This document shows, one piece after another, positions 117-51,628 of a stretch of 52,575 nt of DNA. Location of the stretch: the NCBI GenBank assembly GCA_030605385.1, contig JAUWIL010000001.1, positions 1-52,575 of the forward strand, written 5' to 3'. The position numbers and the translations under genes were made by a program. The notes beneath the pieces are model-generated. The model was given only the letters and a program-made list of their open reading frames with translations, searched no databases and had not been told where the DNA came from. This stretch comes from Methanobacteriota archaeon (GTDB taxonomy: Archaea; Halobacteriota; Syntropharchaeia; JAUWIL01). Every line of letters begins with the position of its first letter. Position 1 is the first letter of the stretch.

Positions 117-2102
117 CTACGGAGCCACTGTAGTTGTTCCTTTTAAACACTCATCTATCTGTCCATCGCAGTCATCATCTATGCTGTTGTCACATACCTC
201 TGTAGTCGGTTTAACTTCGCCAACGCAACTTCCCCATGATCCTGCAGAACAAGTTTGCGTTCCAGATGCACAGGCACCAACATCACTGCCACAGGATTGT
301 GTCAGACCCTCATCTGTGCTGCCATCGCAATCATCATCTATACCGTTGCATGTTTCAGTGGTTGATCCTACTTCACCAGCACAGCTACTCCATACCCCAC
401 TTGAGCATGTTTTAGTTCCTGCTACACAGGCACCAACATCGCTGCCGCAGGATTGCGTCAGGCCCTCATCTGTGCTTCCATCGCAATCATCATCCTTGTT
501 GTTGCAGGTTTCTGTTGCACCGGGATGAATGCTTGCATCGGCATCATTGCAATCATCTCCCCCAGACGACAGAGCATAGTATCCGTCTAAATCGGCATCC
601 TGAGCCCCCAGAGGAAAACCAACAAATGTTCCATTTTGCTTTATGAGTGAGTGGGATACGCTTGCTTCAAGCTGAACCTTAGACCAAACATACAAAGCAT
701 CAAACTCATAATCCGTGCTGACTGAGAATACTTCACCTGCACTTGCAGTGAATGCGTGACCTGTGTCGGGACTGCTTGGACCTCTTGTGTTAAAGGTTCT
801 GCCGTGCGGACCTGAAACAACTACTGCATAGCCGCATCCACTTTTATCTACACCTGGCTCTATTTGAACCATAATATCACCCGACTCTAGGGCAGTAAAC
901 GTTCGTGTCACAGTGCACTCGGCACCAGTATACATATACATATACTTGACCCAATCTGGATAGCTAGAGCACACCCAGTCCGTCCCGTCCCATACAACTT
1001 TCTGGTATCCAACATATGTTTCAGGACAGGTTGAAGGCGGAGATTTATATGTTTGCGTGCAAGTACTCTGGCAGCACCTATCAGAATCAGAAGCCGCTAT
1101 AAATGCCCCACTACAATACTCAGTATTAGGGCACACATCCCCTCCCTGACTGGAACAGGTAGGATTCGGAGATGGTAACGTTGCGCTTAGTATCCTGTAA
1201 TAGCCTCCATCATAGCCTGAATAGTACATTCTCTTAGAGCCATCGTCCAATGTTATTGTATTTGATGCATATGCAGTACTGTCGTATGTTCCGCCTTTGC
1301 TTATTCTTGTTCCGCTCTCCTTGGTCAATGTCAGCCCATCTGAGGATGTAGCACTTAGTATGTTCCCACCAGATTTTGAGTAGTACATCCTGTAAGATCC
1401 ATCTGATAGTCTTATGACATCAGGATAGCATACTTGATCCGATGTGCTATCACGCTCTATACGAACGCCGCTCTCCTTGGTCCACGTGAGACCATCAGAA
1501 GATGTGGCACTGAGGATTCGGTATGCACTGCTACCCGATTCCGAGCCGAAATAGTACATTCGATACGTGCCATCATCAAGTTTTATTACCTCGGGATTGT
1601 GCACTTGCCCGCTGTCATAGGTTCCCCCAGTTGTTAACCTGTATCCACTCTCTTTCGTCCATGTTAATCCATCAGAAGAAGTTGCACTGAGGATGTAGTG
1701 GTTGGGTGCACCTCCAGCAACCCCCATATAATACATCCTATAGGATCCACTATCGAGCTTTATAACGTCTGGAGAGGCTATAGCGTCAACATTAAACTCC
1801 CCACCAGGGCTAAGCCTCACACCACTATCCTTAGTCCATGAAACACCATCTGAGGAAGTTGCACTCAATATACGCAGTGTTGAGCCGTCATAGCCTGTGT
1901 AGTACATCCTGTACCCGCCGGATATCTTCACAACATCTGAGATGTATGCATAGTTGCTGTCGTATGTTCCGCCTACATCTATCCGGATTCCACTTTCCTT
2001 CGTCCATTCTTCGCTGGCTGATGCAGGATATGCTGATATCGCCAGCATTAGCAGCAGCATCAATACCATTCCAAGTTTTATCAAACCGTACTTTTTATTC
2101 AT
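117..2102 (-). CDS. Secreted multidomain protein: signal peptide, about six Asp-box beta-propeller blades, Cys-rich linker, beta-rich domain, three C-terminal Cys-rich CxxxDDDCDGxxDEG repeats
   Basis: ORF 117..2216. Start moved to M39 because MNKKYGLIKLGMVLMLLLMLAISAYPASA is a typical signal peptide with a G-rich RBS upstream. About 45-50 aa blades repeat, each ending RILSATSSDG(L/V)(T/S)WTK (SxDxGxTW Asp-box). The C-terminus repeats CN..DDDCDG(S/Q)(T/I)DEG three times. Confidence 0.7.
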   Translation of the reverse strand: MNKKYGLIKLGMVLMLLLMLAISAYPASASEEWTKESGIRIDVGGTYDSNYAYISDVVKISGGYRMYYTGYDGSTLRILSATSSDGVSWTKDSGVRLSPGGEFNVDAIASPDVIKLDSGSYRMYYMGVAGGAPNHYILSATSSDGLTWTKESGYRLTTGGTYDSGQVHNPEVIKLDDGTYRMYYFGSESGSSAYRILSATSSDGLTWTKESGVRIERDSTSDQVCYPDVIRLSDGSYRMYYSKSGGNILSATSSDGLTLTKESGTRISKGGTYDSTAYASNTITLDDGSKRMYYSGYDGGYYRILSATLPSPNPTCSSQGGDVCPNTEYCSGAFIAASDSDRCCQSTCTQTYKSPPSTCPETYVGYQKVVWDGTDWVCSSYPDWVKYMYMYTGAECTVTRTFTALESGDIMVQIEPGVDKSGCGYAVVVSGPHGRTFNTRGPSSPDTGHAFTASAGEVFSVSTDYEFDALYVWSKVQLEASVSHSLIKQNGTFVGFPLGAQDADLDGYYALSSGGDDCNDADASIHPGATETCNNKDDDCDGSTDEGLTQSCGSDVGACVAGTKTCSSGVWSSCAGEVGSTTETCNGIDDDCDGSTDEGLTQSCGSDVGACASGTQTCSAGSWGSCVGEVKPTTEVCDNSIDDDCDGQIDECLKGTTTVAP

Positions 2103-2561
2103 TCTTTTGCCCCCCCATTCCAAAGGTTTTGCTCCATATTTCATTTTCATCAGAGTTTGCTTTGATTGGCTGGACATCTTGAGTTTCTTCACCGTAGGAT
2201 TTTGTTCATGCGGCATGGTATATTCACCGACATGCTCTCAGCGCCGACAGCTACGCTAAAACAGCCAAGAATTAGAATTATGATGAGTGCTGTAAGTGCT
2301 ATCTTTCTGTGTGCTTTATCTGCCATATGTAACCTATCCATTTGGAAATAGTGAACATAATATATTTTAGTTTGATGATGTATATGTGATTAGTAGCTTA
2401 TGGAGCTTTATCCTACATAGTTGTTTAGGTGCTTCCACATTAACTTGCAGATCCGTCTTTGCCCGCTCACATTGTAATTATGGTACAATCGGATAAAAAT
2501 GTTACCCATAAATTAAGTGTGCCTCATTAAGCTTTTTTCTGTAAGGCATGAGTAAGCTACT

Positions 2562-2720
2562 ATGTCAAAAAAAAGATACAGGACAGTCTCACTGCCAGAG
2601 GAACTTTTTGAAAAAATAGAAGCTGTAATCGAAAGCAAAGAATATGGGTACAGTAGTGTTACTGAGTTCATTAAGGAATTAGTAAGGGAGCGGTTGAGGG
2701 AGTTGGGGTATAAGGTTTAG
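2562..2720 (+). CDS. Ribbon-helix-helix (CopG/Arc-like) small DNA-binding protein, 52 aa
   Basis: ATG at 2562 to TAG at 2718-2720, below the ORF-track length cutoff. MSKKRYRTVSLPEELFEKIEAVIESKEYGYSSVTEFIKELVRERLRELGYKV fits the beta-strand (RTVSLP) plus two-helix RHH pattern. Confidence 0.6.
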   Translation: MSKKRYRTVSLPEELFEKIEAVIESKEYGYSSVTEFIKELVRERLRELGYKV

Positions 2721-2776
2721 GGGTGTAAAACTCTTTCTCCAACCTTCTATTTCTCCACTTCAAACCGGAAAATAGG

Positions 2777-2815
2777 CACGTTATGTTTATGTGTGAGTGG
2801 TGGTATAAAATAAGG
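2777..2815 (+). promoter_or_regulatory. Copy 1 of a ~40-nt conserved motif with TATA-like box, directly upstream of the TIR-like gene
   Basis: CACGTTATGTTTATGTGTGAGTGGTGGTATAAAATAAGG. A TATAAAATAA box lies about 25 nt before the GGAGGTGA RBS and the ATG at 2832. Confidence 0.45.
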
Positions 2816-2831
2816 GGGAGGTGAGTCATCC

Positions 2832-3314
2832 ATGCCATACACAGTTTTTCTAAGCCATTGCACGAGTCCCGAGGATATGAAATATGTGAATTGGTTCGAT
2901 TCTACACTTAGAAATCAATGTATTGGGTGCTATGTTGCTGAATGGTATCGAGAGCCAAACAACCTTATAACAGACAAAATAAAAAACGCAATTAATGATA
3001 GCCAATGCGCTCTAGTATTATGGACGAAAAAAGGAAGAGGATCCCAATTCGTCAATCAAGAAGTAGGTTATGCTGAAGATAAAAAACTAATAATACCTCT
3101 TGTAGAAAAGGGAGTTCCATTAGGAGGGTTCCTTTATGGAAGGGATTGTATTGAATTTGAAAGAAACAATCCAACAGGAGCATTAAATAGTACCGTTGAA
3201 TATATCAATCAACTTAAGCTTGCCAAAGAGCAACAGGATATGGCAACGGGCATGGTTACTCTTCTCATTAGCCTTTTTACACTCGGAGGTCTACTTGCTG
3301 CAGCATCAAGGTAA
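2832..3314 (+). CDS. TIR-like domain protein with C-terminal transmembrane helix
   Basis: The N-terminus YTVFLSHCTSPED, then SQCALVLWTKKG...FVNQEVGYA...KLIIPLV, matches the TIR/DUF1863 layout (strand-SH start, conserved W/E helix). The last ~25 aa (GMVTLLISLFTLGGLLAAA) are hydrophobic. GGAGGTGA RBS lies 8 nt upstream. Confidence 0.6.
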   Translation: MPYTVFLSHCTSPEDMKYVNWFDSTLRNQCIGCYVAEWYREPNNLITDKIKNAINDSQCALVLWTKKGRGSQFVNQEVGYAEDKKLIIPLVEKGVPLGGFLYGRDCIEFERNNPTGALNSTVEYINQLKLAKEQQDMATGMVTLLISLFTLGGLLAAASR

Positions 3315-3326
3315 GAAACCTTCTTC

Positions 3327-3593
3327 CTAATACTTATTTTTACAGTATTGCTCTATTTGGTTCAACATCCCCTCGCTACCCGCAACGACCTTAATGTCTC
3401 GCAAGTCCTCCACTATCTTTTCAAAGACCTTGCATTTTCCTTTGAGGTGGGCGAGAGGGTGAAGATAAAAATCGACCCGGAGGGAGAAAGACTGATCGTT
3501 GAGAAACGGTACTCGTTTTGTCTCTCTTTTGTCTCTCTGCACTCTATTAAAGATTGTCAGAGGGTGCGACTCAGATAAAGTTAACTTTGTCAT
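3327..3593 (-). CDS. Hypothetical protein, last gene of a four-gene minus-strand operon
   Basis: ATG start with a GAGG RBS. It overlaps the stop of the upstream gene by 23 nt. No recognisable domain. Confidence 0.4.
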   Translation of the reverse strand: MTKLTLSESHPLTIFNRVQRDKRETKRVPFLNDQSFSLRVDFYLHPLAHLKGKCKVFEKIVEDLRDIKVVAGSEGMLNQIEQYCKNKY

Positions 3594-4401
3594 CTTTTAC
3601 CGCCTCTAGTTTATCCTCCCATATGTTATACTGGGTCATGTATTTCTCCCTCCTCTCGGCTAATCTTGTATCTAATTGAGTGGATTGTACGAACTCCTCT
3701 ATTTCGTTTGCCATCCTTCTTATCGTATCTATATCGCTTTTTATTTCCTCGCATTCCCTTATTTCCAATAGTTCTTTCTCGAATCTAGGAAAGATATCTT
3801 TAATGTAAATATGGCTATGTTTTTCCCCCAATATTGATCTTGTTAGTTTTGGGACGCCATCTCTTTTTAACCATTGTTTGCCATCTTTCATTCCAAATTC
3901 CGCTTCAAATTTGGGGATGTATCGTTCAAGTTCCTCGGAAGTCTCTATCCACCCTTCAACTTTTTCTTTGATATCCTTTTCTACTTCTCCTAGGTTAGAG
4001 TTATATTCTCCAACCTGTTTTCGGTATTCTGCTACGTCCTCAACCAGCTCCTTATGTCTTTTAATAAAATCTTTTTCAGCACCCGTATCGCCTTTTAAAC
4101 TCGGCCCCCAATATCTTAAAGAATCTATATTCCCACTCTTTATTTCAGATATAGTTTCCCCATTCATATATAGAGTTCTCATGATGGGGTCTATTATCTT
4201 GGCTATCGCGATTACTACACTGTCTCTTTCTCTGTCTTTACGTAGTTCATCTACCTGCTCACTTACCTTTTTGACACACACCCAAGTTATTATTGCTAAG
4301 AGTGCTGTTGCAACTGCAGTGACTGCTGCTGCGAGATTATTTGTTATTCCCTCTACCGCCATCACTACTATTTCTTCTGCTACCATTACCACTGTTTGCA
4401 A
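3571..4401 (-). CDS. Membrane-anchored helical/coiled-coil protein, unknown function
   Basis: N-terminal hydrophobic helix (AAAVTAVATALLAIITWVCV), followed by about 230 aa rich in E/K with heptad-like character. No known catalytic motif seen. Confidence 0.55.
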   Translation of the reverse strand: MQTVVMVAEEIVVMAVEGITNNLAAAVTAVATALLAIITWVCVKKVSEQVDELRKDRERDSVVIAIAKIIDPIMRTLYMNGETISEIKSGNIDSLRYWGPSLKGDTGAEKDFIKRHKELVEDVAEYRKQVGEYNSNLGEVEKDIKEKVEGWIETSEELERYIPKFEAEFGMKDGKQWLKRDGVPKLTRSILGEKHSHIYIKDIFPRFEKELLEIRECEEIKSDIDTIRRMANEIEEFVQSTQLDTRLAERREKYMTQYNIWEDKLEAVKDDKVNFI

Positions 4402-4461
4402 CCCTCCTATCTATAACAGGAACAGTTGTCAGCCAAATGAAAGGGCTGAACGTCTAAACTC

Positions 4462-4977
4462 CTAGTTCCTCCCTCTCTCTTTTGCAATAGCTTCTTGTAT
4501 CATTCTTTTAACCCTATCTTCATCCTGATTAATATCATCTTCATTGAACCACAGAACCTTCCACCCCCTCTCATTTAGTGCGTTCTCCTTCCCCGCATCT
4601 CTTTCTTTTGCATGCCAGTAGTCAGCGCCAGGCTCTATAGCAACTTTTTCGTTTACAAATGCGAAGTCGATCCAATATCTTGAAACATTGTACTGCTTTT
4701 CGTAATCCTCATGTTCTTTGAAGCACAGTTCGTTTAGATATTGCTCAGTCCTTTTTTCCAAGTCTGTGTCTTTTTTTGATGGCGGCACTACTTCTCGTTC
4801 AAAACGAACTTCATCTACTACAAAATTTAGTTCACAGTCTTGACAAGTTACTATGAAAGGAGGCTTCTGCTTAAGATAAAGGTTAAAGATGTTATAATAT
4901 CTCATACATTTTGGACATTTTGTCCACAGGTTCGTCCCACCGCCTATGTACGCAATACTTTTCATCATCTCTACCAT
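4462..4977 (-). CDS. Zinc-ribbon plus DUF559 (Vsr-like endonuclease fold) protein
   Basis: CPKC...CQDC zinc ribbon at the N-terminus. The C-terminus YWIDFAFVNEKVAIEPGADYWH...RDAGKENALNERGWKVLWFNEDDI matches the DUF559 pattern (Y.vDF...IE.DG..H...D..R...L...G..vlRf). Confidence 0.6.
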   Translation of the reverse strand: MVEMMKSIAYIGGGTNLWTKCPKCMRYYNIFNLYLKQKPPFIVTCQDCELNFVVDEVRFEREVVPPSKKDTDLEKRTEQYLNELCFKEHEDYEKQYNVSRYWIDFAFVNEKVAIEPGADYWHAKERDAGKENALNERGWKVLWFNEDDINQDEDRVKRMIQEAIAKERGRN

Positions 4978-4978
4978 A

Positions 4979-5521
4979 TTACCGCAGCTCCAACAATTCT
5001 ATCCCATATTTTTCCAATGTGGACAGCAACTCTGGATCTCTCTGCTTGCAGATTATCAGCTTCTGTATCTCGTTGACAGGATAGTTTTCTTTAACAAGAA
5101 CTTCGTAACTCAGCACTTGCCCGATTGCTTCGAAATTCAGTTTATCTTTGATTTCCGCTAAAACAATATTCTTATCCTTTATCATGTTAAGGAATCCTCT
5201 TTCAATATCTTCATCAGGAGACTTAGATCTCTTCCTGAATTTCACTATTCTTACATTATAAGAATCAGGAGTTTGAGCGCCAGTTTTTCCTTCAGGAATA
5301 AATATAGCATCAACTCTTTTTATTTCAGTTGACACGGTCTCACTCTCAAACACAGGTTTAACATGTACTTCTGCATAAATAGTTCCCCTAATTTCAGGAT
5401 CTTCTAACATCTTTTTATAATATTTATGCAACAATATGTCTTCTTTCCCCTTTGTCTTATTAGGTGGCCAAGGATCAGTATATGTTCCCATCACCAGGCC
5501 TACTGCTGACTTTTTAGCCAT
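4979..5521 (-). CDS. Putative PD-(D/E)xK nuclease-fold protein
   Basis: ORF 4979..5563. Start set to the ATG at 5521, which has a GGTGAT RBS 6 nt upstream. VDAIFIP ... VLAEIKDK gives a D...E-x-K arrangement. One nt separates its stop from the next gene's start. Confidence 0.45.
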   Translation of the reverse strand: MAKKSAVGLVMGTYTDPWPPNKTKGKEDILLHKYYKKMLEDPEIRGTIYAEVHVKPVFESETVSTEIKRVDAIFIPEGKTGAQTPDSYNVRIVKFRKRSKSPDEDIERGFLNMIKDKNIVLAEIKDKLNFEAIGQVLSYEVLVKENYPVNEIQKLIICKQRDPELLSTLEKYGIELLELR

Positions 5522-5625
5522 GTTCTTATCACCTTGCCATACTAACTTAACTATCAGGTGCAACCAACTTAAATGTACTTCTAGACATTTCTATACGCTT
5601 TCATGCTCCCATCAGAATAACAGCT

Positions 5626-5665
5626 CACGTTATGTTTATGTGTGAGTGATAGCATAAGAATAATG
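5626..5665 (+). promoter_or_regulatory. Copy 2 of the same motif, in the spacer between the minus-strand operon and the PIN gene
   Basis: CACGTTATGTTTATGTGTGAGTGATAGCATAAGAATAATG. The first 23 nt are identical to copy 1. Confidence 0.4.
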
Positions 5666-5822
5666 ATAGCTTTGATCTCAGGAAGATTGAAGTTCAAGCA
5701 TGAAGGTGTGTAAGCAAAATAGATTTCGTATGTCGTACCAAGATGATAGAATATATGGCATTAATGTCTGGTATGCCTAAGTTAGGCGACACACATATAT
5801 GTGAAGTAAACACGTAGGGATT

Positions 5823-6293
5823 ATGATGAAACGGAAGTTTAGAGTATACATAGACACGTCGGTCATCGGGGGATATTTAGACGAGGAGTTTAAAGATGCT
5901 TCAACGATGCTTGTTGGAAGATTTAAGAGAGGGGAGCTTGGAGCAGTAATCTCAGAGATCACCAAACTTGAATTGAAAAAAGCACCCAGCGATGTGCAGG
6001 GTGTGCTTAAAGAAATACCAGAAGAAAATATAGAGTATGTTGAACTAACCGATGAAGCAACAACCTTGGCTAAGGGATACGTATCTGACGGTGTATTGGA
6101 TGAAAACAAAATTGCAGATGCACAGCATATAGCCATCGCTACAGTTCATAATGTAGATCTGATTGTGAGTTGGAATTTTAAACACATAGTCAACATTAAT
6201 AAAATCAGAGGCTTCAATGCGGTAAACTTGAAAATGGGCTATCCACTAATAGATATAAGAAGCCCTCAGGAGGTGATATCCTATGAAGAATAA
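5823..6293 (+). CDS. PIN-domain protein (VapC-like toxin)
   Basis: YIDTSVIGG (first acidic residue), ISEITKLE, ADAQHIAIA and the SWNFKH C-terminal motif follow the PIN-domain spacing. Confidence 0.6.
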   Translation: MMKRKFRVYIDTSVIGGYLDEEFKDASTMLVGRFKRGELGAVISEITKLELKKAPSDVQGVLKEIPEENIEYVELTDEATTLAKGYVSDGVLDENKIADAQHIAIATVHNVDLIVSWNFKHIVNINKIRGFNAVNLKMGYPLIDIRSPQEVISYEE

Positions 6294-6414
6294 AAAATTT
6301 GATGCAGTGAAAATGATGAGGGAGATAAGGGACGAATTAAGTAAAAAATTTATACACATGACTTTTGAAGAGCAGAAAAAGTTCATCAAGAAAAGTCTAG
6401 AGCAGACAGCATAG
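6283..6414 (+). CDS. Small 43-aa protein overlapping the PIN gene stop, possible cognate antitoxin or partner
   Basis: ATG at 6283 overlaps the PIN gene 3' end by 11 nt. MKNKKFDAVKMMREIRDELSKKFIHMTFEEQKKFIKKSLEQTA is helical and charged. Below the ORF-track cutoff. Confidence 0.35.
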   Translation: MKNKKFDAVKMMREIRDELSKKFIHMTFEEQKKFIKKSLEQTA

Positions 6415-6482
6415 GGGGCATACACGTCGCATGAAAGGCACCGGTAGCATATATGGGCATGTGAAGGGCAGGATAATGATTT

Positions 6483-6881
6483 ATGTCACAAAAAGGTTGG
6501 TATTATAATCCCCCCAAGCCAAAGGTTCCTGAGGTAGAAAAAAACAGGATTAAGAGCATTTGTGGTGAGTATATTAGGACTGTTTTAAAACCTAAACATA
6601 TAATCCCCAGCCCCTCACATAAAGAGTATTATCATATTGAAGATATGTTTACAAAATGGTGGCGGAATTACTTTTATTTTTATGCCAAATACCATTATAC
6701 AGATCCAAATGCAATTAAGGAGTTTTTAGATCATGGCTTTGCCAGATTGGAATATGTTAATGAACACAGGTTCAATTTATCGTATATGAGACATACAGGA
6801 CAATGGTGGGAGGTTTTTTCAGAATTATCATTGGAAGAATGCTTAGACACCATCGAAGAAATGCCACATTTTAATCCATAG
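6483..6881 (+). CDS. Hypothetical protein, DUF3024-like
   Basis: Clean 132-aa ORF. The W/Y-rich core and the C-terminal GFARLEY...W.L.YMRHTGQWWEV...L.E.L..IEE resemble DUF3024 as I recall it. Not verified. Confidence 0.4.
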   Translation: MSQKGWYYNPPKPKVPEVEKNRIKSICGEYIRTVLKPKHIIPSPSHKEYYHIEDMFTKWWRNYFYFYAKYHYTDPNAIKEFLDHGFARLEYVNEHRFNLSYMRHTGQWWEVFSELSLEECLDTIEEMPHFNP

Positions 6882-7053
6882 AAAAGGCTAAATAAAGCAT
6901 ACTATTTACATGAAAGCTAACGGACTCGCATAACAGGTGGGCATGCGGTTCGCTGCATTCACCAAAATGCTCGGCTTGATCACATAATGCTCTCCTCTTC
7001 GTATTGAATATTACCGATGTTACAGGCTGTTGTAATAAGTGTAATGTTGGTGA

Positions 7054-7200
7054 ACTATAACGGTTAACCCGTTTAAGCCGGGATCTGGTTTGTATCCGCC
7101 TTATTTTGCTGGTCGTGTGAGGGAGATTGAAGTCTGGGCAGGTGGATGTATTACGCAATTGGCTTCATGGCACTTCTTTGAAAATGATGATTGTACTTAA
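7054..7200 (+). pseudogene. N-terminal fragment of an archaeal-type AAA/STAND ATPase (no start codon, truncated after ~45 aa)
   Basis: The frame reads TITVNPFKPGSGLYPPYFAGRVREIEVW... The NPF.PG....PP.F.GRE.E motif is the usual N-terminus of the archaeal ATPase family. There is no P-loop downstream and the frame stops at 7198-7200. Confidence 0.3.
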
Positions 7201-7277
7201 ACTCATGTTGTTCAATTGGGTTTAATCGAGAAACATTTAAACACAATTATATTCATTATTATAACTGAGGTGATAAA

Positions 7278-7421
7278 ATGGAAAAAAGACAAGTATGTTT
7301 TACCATTGAGGAGGATATAGTGAAAAACATGGAAGAACTAAGGGACAAAACCGGCGTGCCAGTGAGCAAGCAAATTGAGTTAGCTCTGAAAGGATACAAA
7401 ATCGAAAAAGTAGAGCAATAG
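7278..7421 (+). CDS. Ribbon-helix-helix small protein, 47 aa
   Basis: MEKRQVCFTIEEDIVKNMEELRDKTGVPVSKQIELALKGYKIEKVEQ shows the strand-helix-helix pattern. GAGGTGA RBS upstream. Confidence 0.5.
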   Translation: MEKRQVCFTIEEDIVKNMEELRDKTGVPVSKQIELALKGYKIEKVEQ

Positions 7422-7518
7422 TAAATTTCGGAGCATTTTAATGACGTATATTGAATTGAGTTTGGGTATCGTTATTGGTATTATTTTATCTTTAGTAGTG
7501 GATGTCGCCACAATACGC

Positions 7519-7863
7519 CTATATCTTAACCGATATCGTATCTTGATCTTCAAGAAAAACCTCTGCCACTGAATGGTTCGCCAGATCCAGTGCGTCTGCA
7601 ATTGCTTTTGGTATGGTTATCATGTATGAGTTGCCTCTTTTCGAGATTTTCACTTTCTCGTGTTTCTTAGCTTGCAGGAACAGGTAGGCTTTTTCCAGCG
7701 CTCCTGGGCTGAGCAGCTCATACTTGCACTTGGCGCATTTCCAACCACGTACTTTCAATCCTTCCACATCGATCTCGGTGCGCTCACACAGGTTGTTGCA
7801 CTGAGGGCACTTTAATCCCCCCTCTTCAAGATTCTTTAGTTCATCTATTTTTGATTCCGACAT
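7519..7863 (-). CDS. Antitoxin-like protein: YgiT/MqsA-type zinc ribbon fused to an AbrB/SpoVT domain
   Basis: CPQC...CAKC zinc ribbon. The C-terminal VKISKRGNSYMITIPKAIADALDL...VAEVFLEDQDTISVKI is a SpoVT/AbrB swapped-hairpin signature. Confidence 0.6.
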   Translation of the reverse strand: MSESKIDELKNLEEGGLKCPQCNNLCERTEIDVEGLKVRGWKCAKCKYELLSPGALEKAYLFLQAKKHEKVKISKRGNSYMITIPKAIADALDLANHSVAEVFLEDQDTISVKI

Positions 7864-8110
7864 GTTTTATTAACCACACTTCCTCGTCCAGAGAGTATGA
7901 GTAGCTGGGCACGAGCTTGGTGAAGACGATCTGATTCTTCCGATCGATTGCCCGGCCAACCTCTCCCTTCGTCATTCTTGCATCCTCGTAGTCGTATCCA
8001 TCCTCAATTATCTCCTGTAGTTTCCAGGGCGAGATGTCATGCCTCACCATATCTTTCAGCGCGTCTTTGCTGGGAATGCATAGTTTGCTTCTGAAGCGAA
8101 CATCAAACAT
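7841..8110 (-). CDS. Small toxin-like protein (possibly DUF4258/RelE-fold), upstream partner of the AbrB antitoxin
   Basis: Overlaps the antitoxin gene by 23 nt. The ATG at 8110 gives MFDVRF... An in-frame TTG at 8158 would add 16 aa encoded by the family A repeat. Family assignment is tentative. Confidence 0.45.
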   Translation of the reverse strand: MFDVRFRSKLCIPSKDALKDMVRHDISPWKLQEIIEDGYDYEDARMTKGEVGRAIDRKNQIVFTKLVPSYSYSLDEEVWLIKHVGIKNR

Positions 8111-8162
8111 GTCTGAAAACCTTTGGTTTTCATACTGTTGCGGAACTGCGTTCCGCAAACAT
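8105..8162 (+). repeat. Family A double-hairpin unit, solo copy
   Basis: AAACATGT CTGAAAACC TTT GGTTTTCA TACTGTT GCGGAAC TGC GTTCCGC AAACAT. Confidence 0.85.
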
Positions 8163-8317
8163 CTCTGGCTCCTGTATAAACAGTATGTTTAAACACCCTA
8201 TTAAAACTTTTTGTTACCAACGTTGTTTTTATCTTCCTTATACTTCAACCGCTATGTTATTCTTTCTCAAGCAACCTTGCTGTATTATAAAGTACAACTT
8301 TGTAATACAGAGAAAAA

Positions 8318-8669
8318 TCATTTGATTTTTCTCGCTGTTTCCTCGCTTATCTCTTGCTGCTCGCTGGTTGCGCCGGTCTCTATTCTGCGCTCCCTGGCCA
8401 TCCTGATCACGTCATACACGCTCTTGTTCAGCATGACTGCAGCATGTCTAAAACACTGCGTGTTTTATACGGTTGAAAAACTACGTTTTTCAAACACTGC
8501 TGAGAGATATCCTGCCGCGCGCGTATAAGTCCATCACGTACTCTGCAGCCCCCATGTAAAAAAGCTGTCTCATTGTAGTGCTTTTGTCCACGTACATCTC
8601 CCCGGTGCGCAGCTCCACCAGTGGAAGAATGTCCTCCGGTATTCGTAGTGGATATGATACCATGCCCAT
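8318..8669 (-). pseudogene. UPF0175-family (antitoxin-like) gene split by a family A hairpin unit
   Basis: The 5' part, 8669..8490, encodes MGMVSYPLRIPEDILPLVEL...AAEYVMDLYARGRISLSSV and stops inside the repeat. The 3' part, 8443..8318, encodes AAVMLNKSVYDVIRMARERRIE... Joining the two flanks gives an in-frame ...GRISLSSAAVMLNKS... typical of UPF0175. Confidence 0.6.
8444..8497 (+). mobile_element. Family A double-hairpin unit inserted inside a coding sequence
   Basis: CATGT CTAAAACAC TGC GTGTTTTAT ACGGTT GAAAAAC TAC GTTTTTC AAACA, flanked by CA on both sides. Confidence 0.75.
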
Positions 8670-8799
8670 TTACATCACCTCCATCAGTTTATTTTTTGCT
8701 TTTAGATAACTTGACCTGTTTACGTACACCCTGACGTTTTCCAGCGCCGCATACAAAGTATGTGAAGCGCGCAAAGAACGAAACGCCACTTCCATCCAG

Positions 8800-10744: not shown

Positions 10745-10869
10745 GTCGAACTTTCAGTTCGACTGTCTTGCGAAAGATCTGATTTCGCAAAGTCTTGCAA
10801 AACATAGTTTTGCGGGATATCTGAAGGCTCTGCCTTCAGAGATATCTTGCAGAACGAAGTTTCGCGGGA
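10745..10869 (+). repeat. Family B hairpin array (5 hairpins of 19-27 nt)
   Basis: GTCGAACT/AGTTCGAC. Then TCTTGCGAAA..TTTCGCAAAG, TCTTGCAAAAC..GTTTTGCGGGA, TATCTGAAGG..CCTTCAGAGATA and TCTTGCAGAAC..GTTTCGCGGGA. Confidence 0.85.
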
Positions 10870-10963
10870 CATCGTCATCCGCCCGGAATCCAGATGTTTC
10901 AGATAAAATGATATTATGAGAAAAGCTGTAGTTATTATCTTTGGTGAATGGTTTGGGAGCTTT

Positions 10964-13705: not shown

Positions 13706-14404
13706 TCAAATCTCCACCTTCAGATCCTGCGAAACGGAGTTTCGCGGGACAGGCGAAAGCTTTGCTTTCGACAAGGTCCTGCGAATGTCAAGCTCGTTAT
13801 GTACTACTATCATGCAGTGGTCCACATGCAGTGATTTTTGTCCGACGCTTACATTTCTTGCACAGGCATCTGCAAGGAGCCGCTCATATTCTTCACCAAG
13901 TCCCATATGGTCGCCAAGCACGAAAATCAGTTTATCACCCATCTCAATTTCTCTTATCCACTCGCCTGTTTCAACAAGATATATTATATCTGTGCCGTCA
14001 CCGCACCCTTCCAGCACATCCTTCATGTCCCCTTTACGTATGTATACGCCAGGAGTTGACAATATTTCATGCTCGGTGATGTTCTGCCTTCCAAGCGCCT
14101 TGCTTATCAGCGAGGCTGCGCTTCTTTCATCCGGGCTGAGATATCTCAGCTCACTGCCTTCAAAGCGTATCAGGATCGGGGGATTTGGCTCTCCGAGCAG
14201 CAGAAGCCAGAGTCTTGTATCTCTCCGTATATCGTGCGACAGAAAGAACGCTGAATTGACGCACCTGCATACTATATCCATCCTGCCGGCTGAACCTGGG
14301 AGGTCTTTCAGGCTGAAACCGCCGGTCGTAGTAGCTGTGCTGCTAACCACCAGAAATTCCCTTCTAACGCCCTCTCCCCTAACACCCATGTTGATCTCAC
14401 TCAC
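13706..14404 (-). CDS. trmY: tRNA (pseudouridine54-N1)-methyltransferase TrmY (SPOUT)
   Basis: GRMDIVCRCVNSAFFLSHDIRRD...LSPDERSAASLI matches TrmY/DUF358. The last ~28 codons are encoded by family B repeat sequence. Confidence 0.7.
   Translation of the reverse strand: MSEINMGVRGEGVRREFLVVSSTATTTGGFSLKDLPGSAGRMDIVCRCVNSAFFLSHDIRRDTRLWLLLLGEPNPPILIRFEGSELRYLSPDERSAASLISKALGRQNITEHEILSTPGVYIRKGDMKDVLEGCGDGTDIIYLVETGEWIREIEMGDKLIFVLGDHMGLGEEYERLLADACARNVSVGQKSLHVDHCMIVVHNELDIRRTLSKAKLSPVPRNSVSQDLKVEI
13725..13790 (+). repeat. Family B hairpin array (2 to 3 hairpins) overlapping the trmY 3' end
   Basis: TCCTGCGAAAC GGA GTTTCGCGGGA, then CAGGCGAAAGC TTT GCTTTCGACAAG, then a truncated GTCCTGCGAA. 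Confidence 0.8.
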
Positions 14405-21813: not shown

Positions 21814-21847
21814 CCCTATTTTCCCAGCCTCCCTATTTTCCCAGCCT
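21814..21847. repeat. Perfect tandem duplication, 2 x 17 nt (CCCTATTTTCCCAGCCT)
   Basis: Read directly. It spans the crotonase-family stop codon. Confidence 0.9.
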
Positions 21848-22585: not shown

Positions 22586-22680
22586 GTGAAGGGTCCCCCT
22601 AATGCGCTCTAAAATTGTGTGCAAGCAGTAATATAATGCTTGCCATTTCTTGTCTGCCAATAGCTCCTAATCAGCCGCCA

Positions 22681-23748
22681 TCAAGCCTGATCCGCCATCA
22701 AGCCTGATCTCCCGGCCCCTTTTATCGCACCTATGTGCGGAGAATGTCTTATCTGCGTGTCATCTGACAGCGCGGATGAATATGATGCAAGTCTCCGTAT
22801 ATTCCTACTCACCTTGGACAGTATTATCGCCATCTGGGCATCATTCACATCACGGAATATGGCTTTATCAACTTCCCTCTGCATGGCCCTCATATCCTCC
22901 ATATGACTTATGACGTTGTCAGCAAGCGAGAAGTTATCATTGAAGAATGCCCGAAGAGCATCTTCCTGCAGCTCCTTCGCAAGCCTGGACATGTTCAGCA
23001 GCCCCTCCTTTATCTCGCGGCTGAACTCCCTGTTGTTTAATTCCAATGTTTGTATGGCGATATCTCCGGAGTAGTATGCCATCCGCGCGATGTCCCTTGA
23101 TGCGAGTACTACTATGACGCAGTCCCTCAGGTTGCGTGATGAGCATATGTCCATGGCCACATCCCTATTGATTGTGGTGATGGTCAGCTGCCTTATAGTA
23201 AGCCTGTACAGCTTGTTCACGTCATTTGATCTGTTGATTACGTCCTGCGCAAGCGCCATGTTGCCGCCAAGCAGCGCATCTATGGCGTCCTGATGCATTG
23301 TCACCGCCAATGTATGCATCCTGCGCAGTATTGTCTTCATCGGGAACTTGCTGGGGTCCACGAGCGTTCTTATCGTCACTCTGTTGGAGAACTCCTCCAA
23401 TATTTCAGTGCCAATCAAGTCAACTATGGAGTTTTTGATCTGCCCCTTCCATTCTGGTTGGATGACCTTCTTTGATACCACATTGATTATGTCGCATCCC
23501 TGCATATAGCAGCTCTTTATAGCCCTATCTATCAAGGTGGGGCTGAAGTATTCCTCTAATAAAAGCACACATTCCCGTCTGGCTTCCTCTTTCTTATATG
23601 TCGGTGGGTATATCTTGACTGTCCCGTCATTTTCGATTGATAGGCTGACAGTATCCCCATTATCAAGTCCCTCCCGGTTGACCCATTGCTTTGGCAGTGT
23701 AATCATATAACTTCCGCTTGCGCTTTTCTGTATTTTTCGTGAATCCAT
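22681..23748 (-). CDS. AbrB/SpoVT-domain plus PhoU-domain regulator (archaeal phosphate uptake regulator-like)
   Basis: Start at the ATG at 23748 with a GAGGTGGTG RBS. The N-terminal SGSYMITLPKQWVNREGLDNGDTVSL is AbrB-like. Helical PhoU-like repeats follow. Confidence 0.65.
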   Translation of the reverse strand: MDSRKIQKSASGSYMITLPKQWVNREGLDNGDTVSLSIENDGTVKIYPPTYKKEEARRECVLLLEEYFSPTLIDRAIKSCYMQGCDIINVVSKKVIQPEWKGQIKNSIVDLIGTEILEEFSNRVTIRTLVDPSKFPMKTILRRMHTLAVTMHQDAIDALLGGNMALAQDVINRSNDVNKLYRLTIRQLTITTINRDVAMDICSSRNLRDCVIVVLASRDIARMAYYSGDIAIQTLELNNREFSREIKEGLLNMSRLAKELQEDALRAFFNDNFSLADNVISHMEDMRAMQREVDKAIFRDVNDAQMAIILSKVSRNIRRLASYSSALSDDTQIRHSPHIGAIKGAGRSGLMADQA

Positions 23749-29390: not shown

Positions 29391-30012
29391 ACCTCCGAAT
29401 CAACAAATAGAATAGCTAGATAATCAGGGGTTTTGATCCCCCAATTCGGAGATTTATATTTACCTAAATCCACTCACTGCCATGTATCAAAGCAGTATAC
29501 TGTCATTCAGGCTTTTTCTGGTCCTCAAGTGCAAACAAAGCACTTGGCAGCCACCAAAAGCACTTAGCAGCTATAAAATGCCTTTATAAAACTTCCTTTA
29601 TAAGGCCCTTATAAGATATTGCGCTGCATCAAGCTTACCTATAGCGGCAAATTCCTCAAGTGTTCCTTACCCCCGAGGGGTCGTACTACCGTTATAAAGC
29701 ACATATAAGAATGGTTGAATCAAACTTGCTGCAACCCTACGTGCAGTCCCTTATTCAATCCCTTCCCTACAATAGCCTTACCAGAATATTACTCCTGCTA
29801 ATTTCTCACAATATACATGATGATGAATATGATTCGTGATTATCTAGCCATCTATGTAACCATCTATGCATTTCGGATGATTGTTGATATTGTTGTAATA
29901 TGCTACACATTTAGCCAAGCTATGCTTTAATAAGTTTGCGGTGTTGATATTAATTATTGTGTTAAAATATTGTGTTAAAAAAACAAAAGTTGGTTTTATA
30001 ATTATGCGCTTC

Positions 30013-30495: not shown

Positions 30496-30651
30496 TCTCC
30501 AACAATCTATAAAAAACGCATTCGAAGTAAGTAGGTGCCTCAGAACTCATAGGGTCTGTCATCACCCTTTAAGGGGCTCAGCTATTATCTTCTTCATCAT
30601 CGGCACCTGTAGAAATATCGGGAGTCAAGTGCCTTAATAGTTCTTACCACA

Positions 30652-30767
30652 TCTTGCGAAGCACAGCTTCGCGGGATATCTGAAGGGTGCGCCTTCAGAA
30701 ATATCTTGCGAAATCGGAGATTTCGCGAGACAACCGAATACGAAGTATTCGTTAAGTCTTGCGGGGG
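30652..30767 (+). repeat. Family B hairpin array (4 hairpins plus a truncated fifth), abutting the pyrF stop
   Basis: TCTTGCGAAGC..GCTTCGCGGGA, TATCTGAAGG..CCTTCAGAAATA, TCTTGCGAAATC..GATTTCGCGAGA, CAACCGAATAC..GTATTCGTTAAG, then TCTTGCGGGGG. Confidence 0.85.
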
Positions 30768-31427
30768 CTACCTGCTTCTACCTATCTCGTCTATGATTCG
30801 TTCGGCAGCCACCCTTGGATTATCAGATTTGTATATGCTGCGCCCCACTATGATATGATTTGCACCGTTAATGATGGTTTCGCGCACACTCCCACCCTGC
30901 GCACCTACGCCCGGGCACATAATCTCCATATTAGGTCCGACTATGTCACGTACAACGGCGATGCGCTCGGGCCGTGTCGCAGGCGCTATTATTCCGTCTG
31001 CGTTGCAATCCACTGCCATGTGCACCATGCGCTCCATGCTTGGCTGTAGAAACTCAACCGCACCTGGATGACTCATTTCCACTACCACATATACCATACC
31101 ATTATGCTCGCGAGCGCTGTCCACACACGTCATGAGGCTGTCTCTACCTGTGAATGCGTGCGTTATGATTGCACCGGCTCCTGCCTGAAATATCTGCTGA
31201 CATATCAGGCGATTGGTGTTAGGTATGTCAGCCACCTTCAGGTCTGCTATGACGTGTATGCGTTTGCTGAGTTCACTTATGACGGTTTTACCAGTCGATA
31301 ATATTAGTGGATACCCCACTTTCACCGCGTCAATCAAACCCTGGAGCTGATCGGTTATGCCTAGCGCTTCATCTCCAGAGGTTACATCGAGCGCTAACAC
31401 AAGTCCCGTGCTATTAGGTATTCTCAT
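30768..31427 (-). CDS. pyrF: Orotidine 5'-phosphate decarboxylase
   Basis: LVLALD, ADLKVADIPNT, IVGRSI. Confidence 0.9.
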   Translation of the reverse strand: MRIPNSTGLVLALDVTSGDEALGITDQLQGLIDAVKVGYPLILSTGKTVISELSKRIHVIADLKVADIPNTNRLICQQIFQAGAGAIITHAFTGRDSLMTCVDSAREHNGMVYVVVEMSHPGAVEFLQPSMERMVHMAVDCNADGIIAPATRPERIAVVRDIVGPNMEIMCPGVGAQGGSVRETIINGANHIIVGRSIYKSDNPRVAAERIIDEIGRSR

Positions 31428-31460
31428 TTTCCTTCCTCATCTAATTCATATTTTTTACAT

Positions 31461-31838
31461 GTATGAAATGCGAAGCATGTCCGAAAACCTTAGGTTTTCG
31501 TACTGTTGCGGAACTTCGTTCCGCAAACATGTCTGGAAGCGAAGCTTCCATACGGTTACAGAGCTCCGCTCTGTAAACATGTTTAAAAATCTTTGATTTT
31601 TAAACGGTTGAAAAACTACGTTTTTCAAACATGTCTAAAAGTGGAACTTTTAGACTGTTATGGAACTTTGTTCCATAAACATGTCCGAAAACCTTAGGTT
31701 TTCGTACTGTTGCGGAACTGCGTTCTGTAAACATGTATGAAAAGCTCTGCGTTTCATACGGTTATGGAGCTGTGCTCCATAAACATGTTTAAAAATCTTT
31801 GATTTTTAAACGGTTGCAAAACTACGTTTTGCAAACAT
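31461..31838 (+). repeat. Family A double-hairpin array: one truncated plus seven complete 50-52 nt units
   Basis: Units start at 31476, 31528, 31578, 31630, 31680, 31732 and 31784. Every junction reads AAACATGT. Confidence 0.9.
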
Positions 31839-31873
31839 TCCAATCTCTCACTTTTTACATTCCAATCTCTCAC
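31836..31873. repeat. Direct repeat CATTCCAATCTCTCAC x2 separated by TTTTTA (part of a 22-nt tandem duplication)
   Basis: Read directly. It covers the dys stop codon. Confidence 0.9.
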
Positions 31874-35739: not shown

Positions 35740-35775
35740 GGTGGTAGTTGACCCAGAGGTGGTAGTTGACCCAGA
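35740..35775. repeat. Perfect tandem duplication, 2 x 18 nt (GGTGGTAGTTGACCCAGA)
   Basis: Read directly, in the convergent secD/trkH spacer. Confidence 0.9.
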
Positions 35776-38414: not shown

Positions 38415-38450
38415 GGCACTTTTAGGAATATCGGCACTTTTAGGAATATC
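38415..38450. repeat. Perfect tandem duplication, 2 x 18 nt (GGCACTTTTAGGAATATC)
   Basis: Read directly, upstream of apgM. Confidence 0.9.
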
Positions 38451-39721: not shown

Positions 39722-39967
39722 TGCTGGCATCTTTAGGATAATGCTGGCACCCTTGGGAGACTACTGACACCCTTGGAAGACTACTGGTACCATCTCCTGG
39801 GTCAGTACTACTAGTACCATAGAGATTAAACAAAAGTCTAAACAAAAGTCAAATATGAGTATTGAAGGTGGTGCTTAATGCACTTTAACATACCCTCCAG
39901 CAATCGTATTCAGTCAGGAGTTTTTGGTGCAATATGAATGTGATATAGTGTAGTGTGGTGTAATTGT

Positions 39968-39995
39968 AATATGGGTGTAGCAATATGGGTGTAGC
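39968..39995. repeat. Perfect tandem duplication, 2 x 14 nt (AATATGGGTGTAGC) covering the cofE start codon
   Basis: Read directly. Confidence 0.9.
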
Positions 39996-40743
39996 CGAGA
40001 TTCGCTTATTTGCTCCTGAGGAAGTCCCTCTGATAAAAGAGGGGGACGACATAGTCGATATCATACTCGACGCAGTGGAACTCAAGAGTCATGATATAGT
40101 AGTAATTGCATCAACCATAATGTCCAAGTCTGAGGGTAGAGCTATTTCCCTCGATAGTATCAGACCGTGCGCCAGAGCGGTTGAGCTTGCATCGAACCTG
40201 AACGAAGACCCGAGATTCATGGAGCTTGTTCTGCAGAACAGCCGCAGAATAATAGTCGAGCGCCCCATACTTCTGACCGAAATGCCGAACGGGTACATAT
40301 GCATCAAGGCAGGTATAGACAGGTCCAACGTCAAGGATGGTAAGGCACTACTGCTCCCCGCTGACCCTGATAAGAGCGCGAAAGGTATACACGACCGGAT
40401 TCTCGAGCGCACCGGAAAGAGGGTGAGCATAATAATATCAGACACATCAGGCAGAGCCTTCCGCATGGGTCAGACCGCAGTAGCCGTAGGGTGTGCGGGC
40501 ATTGGTCCGCTGCTGAACTGGGTCGGAATGAAGGACCTTTACGGGCACGAGCTTGAAATAACAGAGGAAGCCGTGGCTGATGAACTTGCAGGCGCATCAA
40601 ACCTGCTCACAGGCGAGGGCAACGGCGGTAAACCCATAGTAGTGGTGCGCGGATTAGACCTGTACTCGGATTCACATGGTGTTGCGGCACTACACCGCAA
40701 AGACGAGGATGATGTAATAAAGAGGGCTTTGCTGCATGTTTAA
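39985..40743 (+). CDS. cofE: Coenzyme F420-0:L-glutamate ligase
   Basis: IKEGDDIVDII..., IKAGIDRSN, IISDTSGRAFRMGQTAVAVG. The stop codon lies inside the first family A repeat unit. Confidence 0.85.
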   Translation: MGVAEIRLFAPEEVPLIKEGDDIVDIILDAVELKSHDIVVIASTIMSKSEGRAISLDSIRPCARAVELASNLNEDPRFMELVLQNSRRIIVERPILLTEMPNGYICIKAGIDRSNVKDGKALLLPADPDKSAKGIHDRILERTGKRVSIIISDTSGRAFRMGQTAVAVGCAGIGPLLNWVGMKDLYGHELEITEEAVADELAGASNLLTGEGNGGKPIVVVRGLDLYSDSHGVAALHRKDEDDVIKRALLHV

Positions 40744-40966
40744 AACGCAAGGCATTTTAGACGGTTGTGAAATCTCTGATTTCACAAACATGTCTGAAAA
40801 AGCAACGCTTTTTCATACGGTTACAGAATCTTCGATTCTGCAAACATGTTTAAAATGCAAGGCATGTTCGAAAACCTTAGGTTTTCGTACTGTTGTAGAA
40901 CGTAGTTCTACAAACATGCCTAAAACACTACGTGTTTTATGCTGTTGCAAAACGTAGTTTTGCAAA
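40735..40966 (+). repeat. Family A double-hairpin array: four complete units and one truncated unit
   Basis: Units start at 40735, 40789, 40845 (18-nt stub), 40863 and 40915. Confidence 0.9.
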
Positions 40967-41007
40967 CAGGAGAAAAGATGAAGTAAAAAAAAGTGGTGAT
41001 AATATTC

Positions 41008-41541
41008 ATGAGCGGCGCCAGAGCCAGACGTCTTGAAAGCGACTATAAGCGCATGTGCGAACTCGATAAAAGCAGTAATTTCATCTCTTTTGCCTGCGAG
41101 GGGGACCCGCCAGAGAAATATGCAGTCACCTTCAGATGCAAGGGCATTATGAAGCGCGACGACGGCAGTCTAGCGAATTCCGTCCGCCATACTCTCGAGA
41201 TCTACCTGACGATGGATTATCCGATGCGCCAGCCCCAGTTGAAGTGGATGACTCCCGTATTTCACCCGAACATACTGGGCGCCACGCACCCATACAACCC
41301 GGGTACCGTGTGCCTCGGAAGCTGGGTGCCTTCCATGTTTCTCGACGACCTCTGCATAAAGCTGGGCGAGATGATTCAGTACAAAAATTTCAGCCTGAAC
41401 AGCCCACTGGATGCCGAGGCTGCGGTATGGGCAAACAAGTTCAAGCTTTCGATGCCAGTCGATGATCGACCTCTGCTGTTAGGCAGCGCCGAAAAATGCG
41501 ATGGTGAGGGCGATGATGAGTTTGACATAATAGTAGAGTAA
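41008..41541 (+). CDS. Ubiquitin-conjugating enzyme E2 (UBC fold)-like protein
   Basis: N-terminal ARRLESDYKRM helix, ...PEKYAVTF..., YPMRQPQLKWMTPVFHPNI......GTVCLGSWVPS: an HPN triad, a catalytic-position Cys and the following W.P, in the canonical E2 order. Confidence 0.7.
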   Translation: MSGARARRLESDYKRMCELDKSSNFISFACEGDPPEKYAVTFRCKGIMKRDDGSLANSVRHTLEIYLTMDYPMRQPQLKWMTPVFHPNILGATHPYNPGTVCLGSWVPSMFLDDLCIKLGEMIQYKNFSLNSPLDAEAAVWANKFKLSMPVDDRPLLLGSAEKCDGEGDDEFDIIVE

Positions 41542-44275: not shown

Positions 44276-44360
44276 GTTAGTATCGGGTTGTTAGTATCGG
44301 GTTGTTAGTATCGGGTTGTTAGTAGTAATGAAAATCGGTTCCTGGTAATCGGTTCCTGGT
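44276..44360. repeat. Two adjacent tandem repeats: about 3.5 x 14 nt (GTTAGTATCGGGTT), then 2 x 14 nt (AATCGGTTCCTGGT)
   Basis: Read directly, upstream of the CorC/HlyC-family gene. Confidence 0.9.
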
Positions 44361-44397
44361 AATACAATGAACACCGCATTCGTGTGGGAAAACTGAG

Positions 44398-51592: not shown

Positions 51593-51628
51593 GCAGTGTC
51601 CGTAGCAGTGTCCGTAGCAGTGTCCATA
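51593..51628. repeat. Tandem repeat, 3 x 12 nt (GCAGTGTCCGTA; the third copy has one mismatch)
   Basis: Read directly, in the divergent nreA / SCP2 spacer. Confidence 0.9.

Follow-up and report, generated by a model that had tools for sequence, protein, structure and literature searches.

Introduction

Two described groups of miniature elements come closest to the repeats reported here, which form an array of hairpins between the dys and pyrF genes in a 52,575-nt stretch of archaeal DNA (contig JAUWIL010000001.1, positions 1 to 52,575; hereafter, the window). In bacteria, the repetitive extragenic palindromes (REPs) and bacterial interspersed mosaic elements (BIMEs) have been proposed to move as folded single-stranded DNA under the action of an HUH enzyme that is encoded in a single copy (PMC8266576, PMC2817692, PMC3733652). 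The tnpA-REP gene has been reported from bacteria, and the Escherichia coli TnpA-REP protein requires irregularity of the stem (PMC8266576). In archaea, palindrome-associated transposable elements (PATEs) are derived from IS605; they are typically 370-570 bp long, and 52-bp versions that retain only the termini appear to be mobilized as well, the 52-bp form of Haloquadratum having one palindrome and an 18-nt 5' leader (PMC3119063). Here we describe family A, a set of 50- and 52-nt units with two abutting hairpins each. We give about an even chance to the view that the dys-pyrF array represents clustered miniature mobile elements, non-autonomous and belonging to a family not described before, for which we infer mobilization in trans by an HUH/Y1 enzyme. 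Our best reading is a REP/BIME- or PATE-like family that inserts after RCA and moves as single units or as multi-unit blocks.

Family A resembles the REP/BIME systems and their REP-associated tyrosine transposases (RAYTs) in several respects. Short extragenic palindromes occur at high density, singly and in clusters between genes of one direction, with a fixed short motif at the 5' foot of the hairpin and with irregular stems. REPs are defined as extragenic palindromes of 20-50 nt present in many copies; the family-A hairpins are 21-25 nt long, two of them occupy the whole 50-52 nt unit, and there are 14 full units at five loci in the 52.6 kb of the window and two further loci in 11.2 kb of the metagenome-assembled genome (MAG) SB_Co_68. 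A C.T mismatch in hairpin 1 recalls the irregularity needed by the E. coli TnpA-REP (PMC8266576). Other traits differ. In place of the REP tag GTAG/CGTC, the fixed motifs of family A are ACAT ahead of hairpin 1 and AC(G/T)G ahead of hairpin 2. The REP/iREP pairs of BIMEs are inverted, whereas both family-A arrays run wholly head to tail, with two alternating hairpin types and 2-4 nt linkers. The stems are far more diverse between copies than REP stems, and the host is an archaeon, whereas tnpA-REP has been reported from bacteria. No RAYT or REPtron gene was found in the window or in the SB_Co_68 contig (L137).

With the haloarchaeal PATEs, family A shares an archaeal host, lack of a transposase and of terminal inverted repeats, palindromes near the ends, a short fixed terminal oligonucleotide, and heterogeneous sequences within one family. 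PATEs insert beside a 4-5 nt target without duplication, and RCA(T) precedes family A at all six loci. The units are too short for a transposase and contain no ORF. PATEs are the closest archaeal precedent. The 52-bp PATE has a single palindrome and a leader instead of two abutting hairpins, and head-to-tail arrays have not been described for PATEs. Furthermore, PATE palindromes match resident IS605-type transposons, whereas no such parent is known for family A: an autonomous IS605-type element sharing its ends was not found in the available DNA, and plasmid, phage, and viral collections gave no match.

Architecture of the dys-pyrF array

The array occupies the interval from the stop codon of dys, which encodes deoxyhypusine synthase (DHS; PF01916; stop at 31848, - strand), to the start of pyrF (PF00215; 30768-31427, - strand; start at 31427). 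The original prediction had placed seven full and one truncated unit of 50-52 nt between these two genes. Both genes were confirmed, and the window positions 31458-31838 (+) indeed hold a gap-free head-to-tail array of one 18-nt partial and seven complete 50/52-nt units. Full units start at 31476, 31528, 31578, 31630, 31680, 31732, and 31784; the array terminates with AAACA at 31837. Tandem Repeats Finder reports periods of 52, 102, and 26 nt. The individual parts are as follows.

31458-31475 (+), partial unit that opens the array at its 5' end: CATGT ATGAAATGC GAA G, hairpin 1 being cut after GCAT, where the next unit begins
31476-31527 (+), unit 1, 52 nt: hairpin 1 GTCCGAAAACC/GGTTTTCGTAC, its third pair mismatched (C.T), and hairpin 2 TTGCGGAAC/GTTCCGCAA; 81.5 bits
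31528-31577 (+), unit 2, 50 nt: CTGGAAGC / ACAGAGC type
31578-31629 (+), unit 3, 52 nt: TTAAAAATC / GAAAAAC type
31630-31679 (+), unit 4, 50 nt: CTAAAAGT / ATGGAAC type
31680-31731 (+), unit 5, 52 nt: 93% identical to unit 1, with two G.T wobbles in hairpin 2
31732-31783 (+), unit 6, 52 nt: ATGAAAAGC / ATGGAGC type
31784-31838 (+), unit 7 and right end of the array: …GCAAACAT; 81.6 bits

The units follow the formula CAT-[GT N8-9 loop3 N8-9 AC]-(G/T)G-[TT N7 loop3 N7 AA]-A. Both hairpins have triloops. The stem of hairpin 1, with 10-11 bp, takes in GT from CATGT and AC from ACKGTT; that of hairpin 2, with 9 bp, takes in TT...AA. The scaffold proposed earlier, CATGT-hairpin 1-A(C/T)(G/T)GTT-hairpin 2-AAA, is retained, with three corrections. 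The stems are longer than was stated, and the linker between hairpins is AC(G/T)GTT, T never being observed at its second position (one copy has GCTGTT). The junction between units forms the palindrome ACATGT rather than the proposed AAACATGT. The stem sequences quoted as examples were all correct, and the array, as stated, has neither unique spacers nor an ORF.

Apart from the single-stranded linkers and the closing pairs (RCA^TGT…AC-KG-TT…AAACA, where ^ marks the left junction), nothing in the unit is fixed; the stem interiors drift, in every case by compensating changes. Most hairpin-1 stems have A4/T4-5 runs on both strands. Hairpins 1 and 2 are approximately 63% alike (repeat family D2), and thus the unit is a doublet of a ~26-nt module. 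The composite of the partial and a CCGAAAACC-type full unit recurs at 40845-40914 (repeat family D3, 85% identity; 31457 vs 40844).

Several systems with repeated hairpins were considered and rejected. A CRISPR array is excluded by the lack of spacers, by variable "repeats" with fixed linkers, and by the absence of cas genes in the window; the Rfam CRISPR-DR match has 16.6 bits at a threshold of 45. Integron attC sites consist of one imperfect hairpin, 55-140 nt long, that carries R''/L''…L'/R' boxes and extrahelical bases; each ORF-bearing cassette has one such site, and an integrase is nearby. Family A has two separate near-perfect triloop hairpins with AAC/GTT at the top of the stem and not at its base, no cassettes, and no integrase. 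A replication origin was rejected on anatomy.

Conservation of structure

The array is strongly constrained in structure, and the constraint is real. Compared with dinucleotide shuffles, its folding z-scores are -13.1 (RNA, + strand), -15.6 (RNA, - strand), and -17.6 (DNA). The whole window contains 26 perfect triloop hairpins of at least 8 bp, against 0.79 +/- 0.88 in shuffles; 23 of them belong to family A and 3 to a second hairpin family, family B, described below.

Compensatory variation was analyzed in alignment A1 of 17 full units, 14 from the window and three from SB_Co_68, with the following structure.

......(((((((((((.....)))))))))))..(((((((((.....)))))))))....

In this alignment 95.8% of cells are paired, against 31-51% after the partners are slid by 1-3 columns. 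Changes on both sides are observed at 14 of the 20 pairs (65 cells), a level reached by none of 500 shuffles. Thus, the compensatory variation on a fixed scaffold that had been noticed by eye is upheld, and stem complementarity exceeds that of shuffled controls. A clean compensatory swap is seen across genomes (GCAAAAC vs GCAGAAC), and within the array units 3 and 7 are 97% identical, their sole stem difference being compensated (GAAAAAC/GTTTTTC vs GCAAAAC/GTTTTGC). Among non-pairs, only C.T recurs: it takes the place of the third pair of hairpin 1 in 9 of the 17 units, and T.T does so in one.

Some hairpin-2 stems are identical and have reverse-complemented loops, as in GCAAAAC TAC GTTTTGC (31814-31834) and GCAAAAC GTA GTTTTGC (40945-40965; also 40893-40913). 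Here the loop is flipped between the arms; the first loop base is still T in about 30 of 36 loops on the defined strand.

Insertion at the dys-pyrF junction

The flanks of the array retain the site into which it came. The relevant features are listed below.

31452-31460 (+), left half of the split target: TTTTTACAT, 9 nt
31839-31851 (+), right half of the split target: TCCAATCTCTCAC, 13 nt; it holds the present dys stop codon (31848-31850, - strand)
31852-31873 (+), intact 22-nt target (TTTTTACAT^TCCAATCTCTCAC), an internal "empty site" that encodes the present C-terminus of dys (…RERLECKK)

When the flanks are joined, they give exactly the 22-mer that stands intact at 31852-31873. Since the flanks concatenate to the intact adjacent copy, a 22-nt tandem duplication came first, and the array then entered one of its copies after ACA(T). 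Joining the flanks also restores the dys frame, and the restored TGA overlaps the ATG of pyrF (ATGA). Among DHS homologues the C-terminal tail varies too much to speak for or against the reconstructed …KKYELDEEGK tail. In one relative (L138; DHS 61% and PyrF 54% identical) the stop of dys and the start of pyrF share bases (TAATG), and in another (L139; DHS 60% identical) the spacer between the two genes is 20 nt, compared with 420 nt in the window; neither locus has a family-A match. We regard this as direct evidence, read from the sequence, that the array is an insertion into what was probably a tightly coupled two-gene operon.

Neighboring units of the array are only 60-70% identical, yet the 22-nt duplicate is perfect. 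Since the duplicate has to be older than the array, unit diversity was imported and not made in place.

The 22-nt duplicate beside the array (31830s-31873) is one of many perfect short tandem duplications in the window. These repeat with periods of 11-22 nt in 2-3.5 copies at 100% identity, are located mostly at gene boundaries (21814-21847, 22675-22709, 29955-29980, 35740-35775, 38415-38450, 39827-39850, 39968-39995, 44276-44324, 44333-44363, and 51593-51625), and are unusually many, far above chance for 52 kb.

Dispersal of family A

The original prediction allowed for a dispersed family, and the repeats are indeed not confined to this array. The covariance model R1, run unfiltered on the window and on 11 kb (11.2 kb) of the MAG SB_Co_68, found 14 full units at five loci of the window with scores of 23.9-83 bits, 11 of the 14 exceeding 40 bits. 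Apart from the dys-pyrF array, the window loci are the following.

8105-8162 (+), single family-A unit; 83 bits, E 1.6e-19
8440-8497 (+), single family-A unit; 72.1 bits
9838-9895 (-), single family-A unit, oppositely oriented and flanked by nrpR and ksgA; 73.9 bits
40732-40969 (+), second array of four full units and one partial unit, found by the covariance model

Copies are located in non-coding DNA or in the final few codons of genes, both singly and in head-to-tail arrays. A putative 59-aa ORF of the - strand takes its TGA stop (8490-8492) from the right end of the 8440-8497 unit, and the first unit of the second array gives cofE its final two codons and TAA stop (40741-40743).

An exact-pattern scan of 185,579 species-representative genomes yielded four matches, three of which are not real. 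The one true match is at the contig end of the MAG "Methanophagales archaeon SB_Co_68" (GCA_029241965.1). Eleven kb of this MAG contig carry the array at the contig end and a single unit (L137 8183-8240), and a family-A copy there overlaps the stop codon of a 306-aa ORF; no homologue was found for the gene adjoining the array. The same scan of metagenome contigs gave eight matches, none with hairpins; in viral contigs a loose pattern gave chance matches only, and a strict pattern none. BLAST searches of plasmid and phage collections had no family-A match, and a protein query made of the array translated in all six frames, aimed at spurious ORFs called in other arrays, matched nothing. At gathering thresholds Rfam has no match in the whole window, and at permissive E-values nothing meaningful on the locus, the best sub-threshold match being mir-190, a eukaryotic microRNA model (30.4 bits, threshold 48). 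A search for tRNA and tmRNA genes found none. The papers searched contain no description of such repeats in ANME-1 (group 1 of the anaerobic methanotrophic archaea), nor of tandem double-hairpin arrays in archaea. The family thus remains unrecognized, as it was in the original prediction.

The GC content of the window (47.1%) is close to that of the SB_Co_68 fragment (47.8%). The window encodes NrpR, CofE, class I LysRS, Nre, and an H4MPT-type domain, a gene content that looks methanogen- or ANME-like; the closest homologues of its pyrF and dys products are only ~60% identical. In our best reading, family A is carried by an ANME-1-related (Methanophagales) archaeal lineage, and we report it as newly described. 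The uncultured ANME-1 archaea hold a central place in marine methane oxidation, and to our knowledge almost nothing is known of the forces shaping their genomes. Present in one of 185,579 species-representative genomes, family A is a sharp lineage marker. It also breaks assemblies, as the copy at the SB_Co_68 contig end illustrates.

Three observations concern the surroundings of the copies. An ORF with a UQ_con domain (E2, ubiquitin-conjugating; 40993-41541, +), an archaeal E2-like protein, lies directly downstream of the second array. Between the 8.1- and 8.4-kb units, positions 8281-8333 hold two more inverted repeats, CTGTATTA…TAATACAG and GAGAAAAATC ATTT GATTTTTCTC, the latter matched weakly by the family-A model (20.5 bits). 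The single unit in SB_Co_68 lies ~30 nt from an apparent tRNA gene on the opposite strand (L137 8060-8170; judged by eye).

Relations among copies and their insertion sites

For most units outside the dys-pyrF array, as well as for its unit 6, the closest relative belongs to another locus or to the second genome. The nearest relative of unit 6 (93%) is in SB_Co_68 (L002 2204-2153), and unit 2 has an identical partial copy at the SB_Co_68 contig end. Three units at 31676-31838 form a block that shares 89% identity with L002 2098-2260 of SB_Co_68, where the flanks are unrelated. Modules are also reassorted: hairpin 1 of unit 8443 matches that of unit 9892 at 96% identity, and its hairpin 2 matches that of unit 31578 at 100%. 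A purely local satellite, arisen by slippage or unequal crossing-over at one locus, would account for the single 204-nt duplication inside the array (units 1 and 5, 93%; units 3 and 7, 97%). Four further loci in the window, another genome, and the kinship of units across loci make this explanation extremely improbable, and we consider it already refuted by dispersal.

The ends of the copies are uniform. The left junction is RCA^TGT at all six independent loci, and every right end is A(A/G)CA followed by any base; tandem junctions thus share ACA. Either end of an element lies 0-3 nt from the foot of a hairpin. CA is present on both sides at six of six loci, and ACA is identical on both sides at only three of them. 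At the dys site the intact copy of the target has one ACAT and the filled site two, which fits an end borne by the element or a duplication of 2-4 bp.

These ends could also belong to an element of another type. [quoted passage not shown] Family A is likewise miniature, non-coding, intergenic, and multi-copy, and its units open with TGT and close with ACA, the classic TG…CA ends; the CA flanks at all six loci and the ACA shared by both sides at three of them, including the dys site, agree with such a duplication. Past 3 nt, however, there are no real terminal inverted repeats: the "terminal repeats" are the 5' arms of two different hairpins and vary between copies. Extensive compensation within hairpins would not be expected if a protein read double-stranded ends, the flanking triplets differ at three of the six loci, and the window encodes no DDE transposase. 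Tandem head-to-tail arrays are a further difference from MITEs. We therefore hold this explanation to be unlikely.

Family-A copies have both orientations relative to flanking genes. Three loci lie in cleanly defined intergenic gaps, all between co-directional genes; the 8.1-8.5 kb singletons are among small, doubtful ORFs and cannot be classed by gap type. Elements are found in 5 of 22 co-directional gaps and in none of 12 divergent or convergent ones. This bias, as well as the A4/T4-5 runs on both strands of most hairpin-1 stems, would suit host cis-acting elements multiplied for their usefulness, be it as terminators or insulators, in protection of mRNA 3' ends, or as sites of a chromosome-structuring protein, as BIMEs are proposed to be in bacteria, and spread by duplication and recombination. 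Oligo-T is the archaeal intrinsic termination signal. In bacteria, REP/BIME elements hold such roles (PMC8266576, PMC2817692). Nevertheless, the difference between gap types is not significant, the array has split an operon junction that overlaps in relatives, which resembles damage and not design, and copies replace the 3' ends of genes and provide their stop codons. This functional explanation, which is compatible with a mobile origin, appears to us as unlikely as the MITE-like one.

The covariation and the very stable predicted RNA folds could, alternatively, indicate structured-RNA genes, the arrays being transcribed and cut into unit-length trans-acting hairpin RNAs, as in a spacer-less relative of CRISPR-like or small-RNA clusters. 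T (U) at the first position of ~30 of 36 loops on the defined strand makes a mild strand asymmetry. No shared, promoter-like sequence was found upstream of the five window loci; together with the occurrence of both orientations, this argues against a dedicated RNA gene. Further points on the same side are the absence of any Rfam family match beyond the sub-threshold eukaryotic microRNA model, copies that overlap stop codons, loops flipped on identical stems (TAC vs GTA), and equally good folding of both strands. An origin as RNA genes is, in our estimate, very improbable.

Proposed mode of spread

Returning to the mobile-element reading, our best mechanistic guess, made by analogy, is derivation from IS200/IS605 in the manner of PATEs or REPs. 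A trans-acting HUH/Y1 enzyme of the IS200/IS605 TnpA or RAYT type would recognize the copies as folded single-stranded DNA, reading the shape of hairpins and the fixed linkers and not the stem sequence. Such shape reading would explain the covariation of stems. Insertion would take place just 3' of an RCA (ACA^T) site. Because each unit ends in ACA and so recreates the target, new units or blocks would stack head to tail; and because any left end could be used with any downstream right end, whole blocks would be excised and moved. As side effects, formerly coupled genes would be separated, and the added bidirectional hairpins with T4-5 runs could affect transcript ends.

The IS608 model offers parallels: two hairpins, one near each end, recognition of shape, and insertion 3' of a short sequence that resembles the element's own right end. 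Unlike IS200/IS605 elements, family A has no tnpA or tnpB and a total length of 50-52 nt, and the 0-3 nt between end and hairpin leave no room for guide sequences. In IS608 the distance from end to hairpin is ~19 nt on the left and 10 nt on the right (about 10-19 nt), a space that holds guide and cleavage sequences.

Several points weigh against this scheme. Among the ~50 window ORFs scanned, and in the 11 kb of the SB_Co_68 contig, there are no transposase, HUH, or Y1 genes; for the window, the absence of a transposase had been predicted correctly. Spacing of the IS608 type is absent, as the ends lie 0-3 nt from a hairpin foot, and so is the GTAG/CGTC tag. CA on both sides is equally compatible with a 2-bp target duplication, with ACA matching at three of six loci. 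Intermediates of the G.T type (3) and of the A.C type (2) occur and both strands fold equally well, so that the strand of action is not discriminated. Template switching between arms can keep palindromes perfect without selection. Finally, the relatives in which the junction was compared are distant, with only ~60% protein identity.

If a Y1/HUH enzyme is responsible, family A would represent an archaeal REP/RAYT-like system of different architecture, with direct arrays and highly variable stems, and its natural covariation would be a ready-made mutational scan of recognition by the enzyme.

A second hairpin family and other features of the window

Family B is a second family of tandem hairpins, found at 10745-10870, 30650-30745, and 13724-13782. 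It consists of ~26-nt modules with triloops and compensatory stems, for example, TCTTGCGAAGC ACA GCTTCGCGGG and ATATCTGAAGGN NNN GCCTTCAGARATAT, and its DNA folding z-scores are -7.1, -6.9, and -3.6. The array at 10745 fills the 234-nt gap between the DUF655 gene and ksgA, which overlap (ATGA) in the relative L141, and the copy at 13724 encodes the final ~25 residues of a Methyltrn_RNA_2 ORF. Families A and B thus remodel operons: pairs of overlapping, translationally coupled genes (dys-pyrF and DUF655-ksgA) have acquired 230-420 nt of hairpins between them, and 3' ends of genes are rewritten.

The ~26-nt module itself may serve as the cassette in an archaeal mobile-DNA system that is new and has no relation to Y1 transposases, or else the arrays may be processed into trans-acting hairpin RNAs; to this pair of possibilities taken together we assign a low probability. 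In the cassette version, the module classes (family-A hairpins 1 and 2, and family B) would be joined head to tail and reshuffled by a dedicated structure-specific enzyme. If either were true, the lineage would have a genome-wide structure-encoded repeat system without a described counterpart.

The stretch 2000-8700, with the two single family-A units at its edge, is low in GC (39% vs 47%). Its ORFs include those with TIR (2832-3314), DUF559 (4462-4977), PIN (5823-6293), DUF3024 (6483-6881), and MazE-like (7519-7863) domains and small RHH-like ones, and by this content it looks like a defence/toxin-antitoxin islet.

A link of the junction palindrome to restriction-modification was considered and is unsupported, ACATGT and CATG not being avoided elsewhere in the window. 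Three other tetranucleotides are strongly avoided in the window as a whole: GGCC (49 observed vs 147 expected), GATC (130 vs 227), and CTAG (39 vs 70), which suggests restriction-modification pressure.

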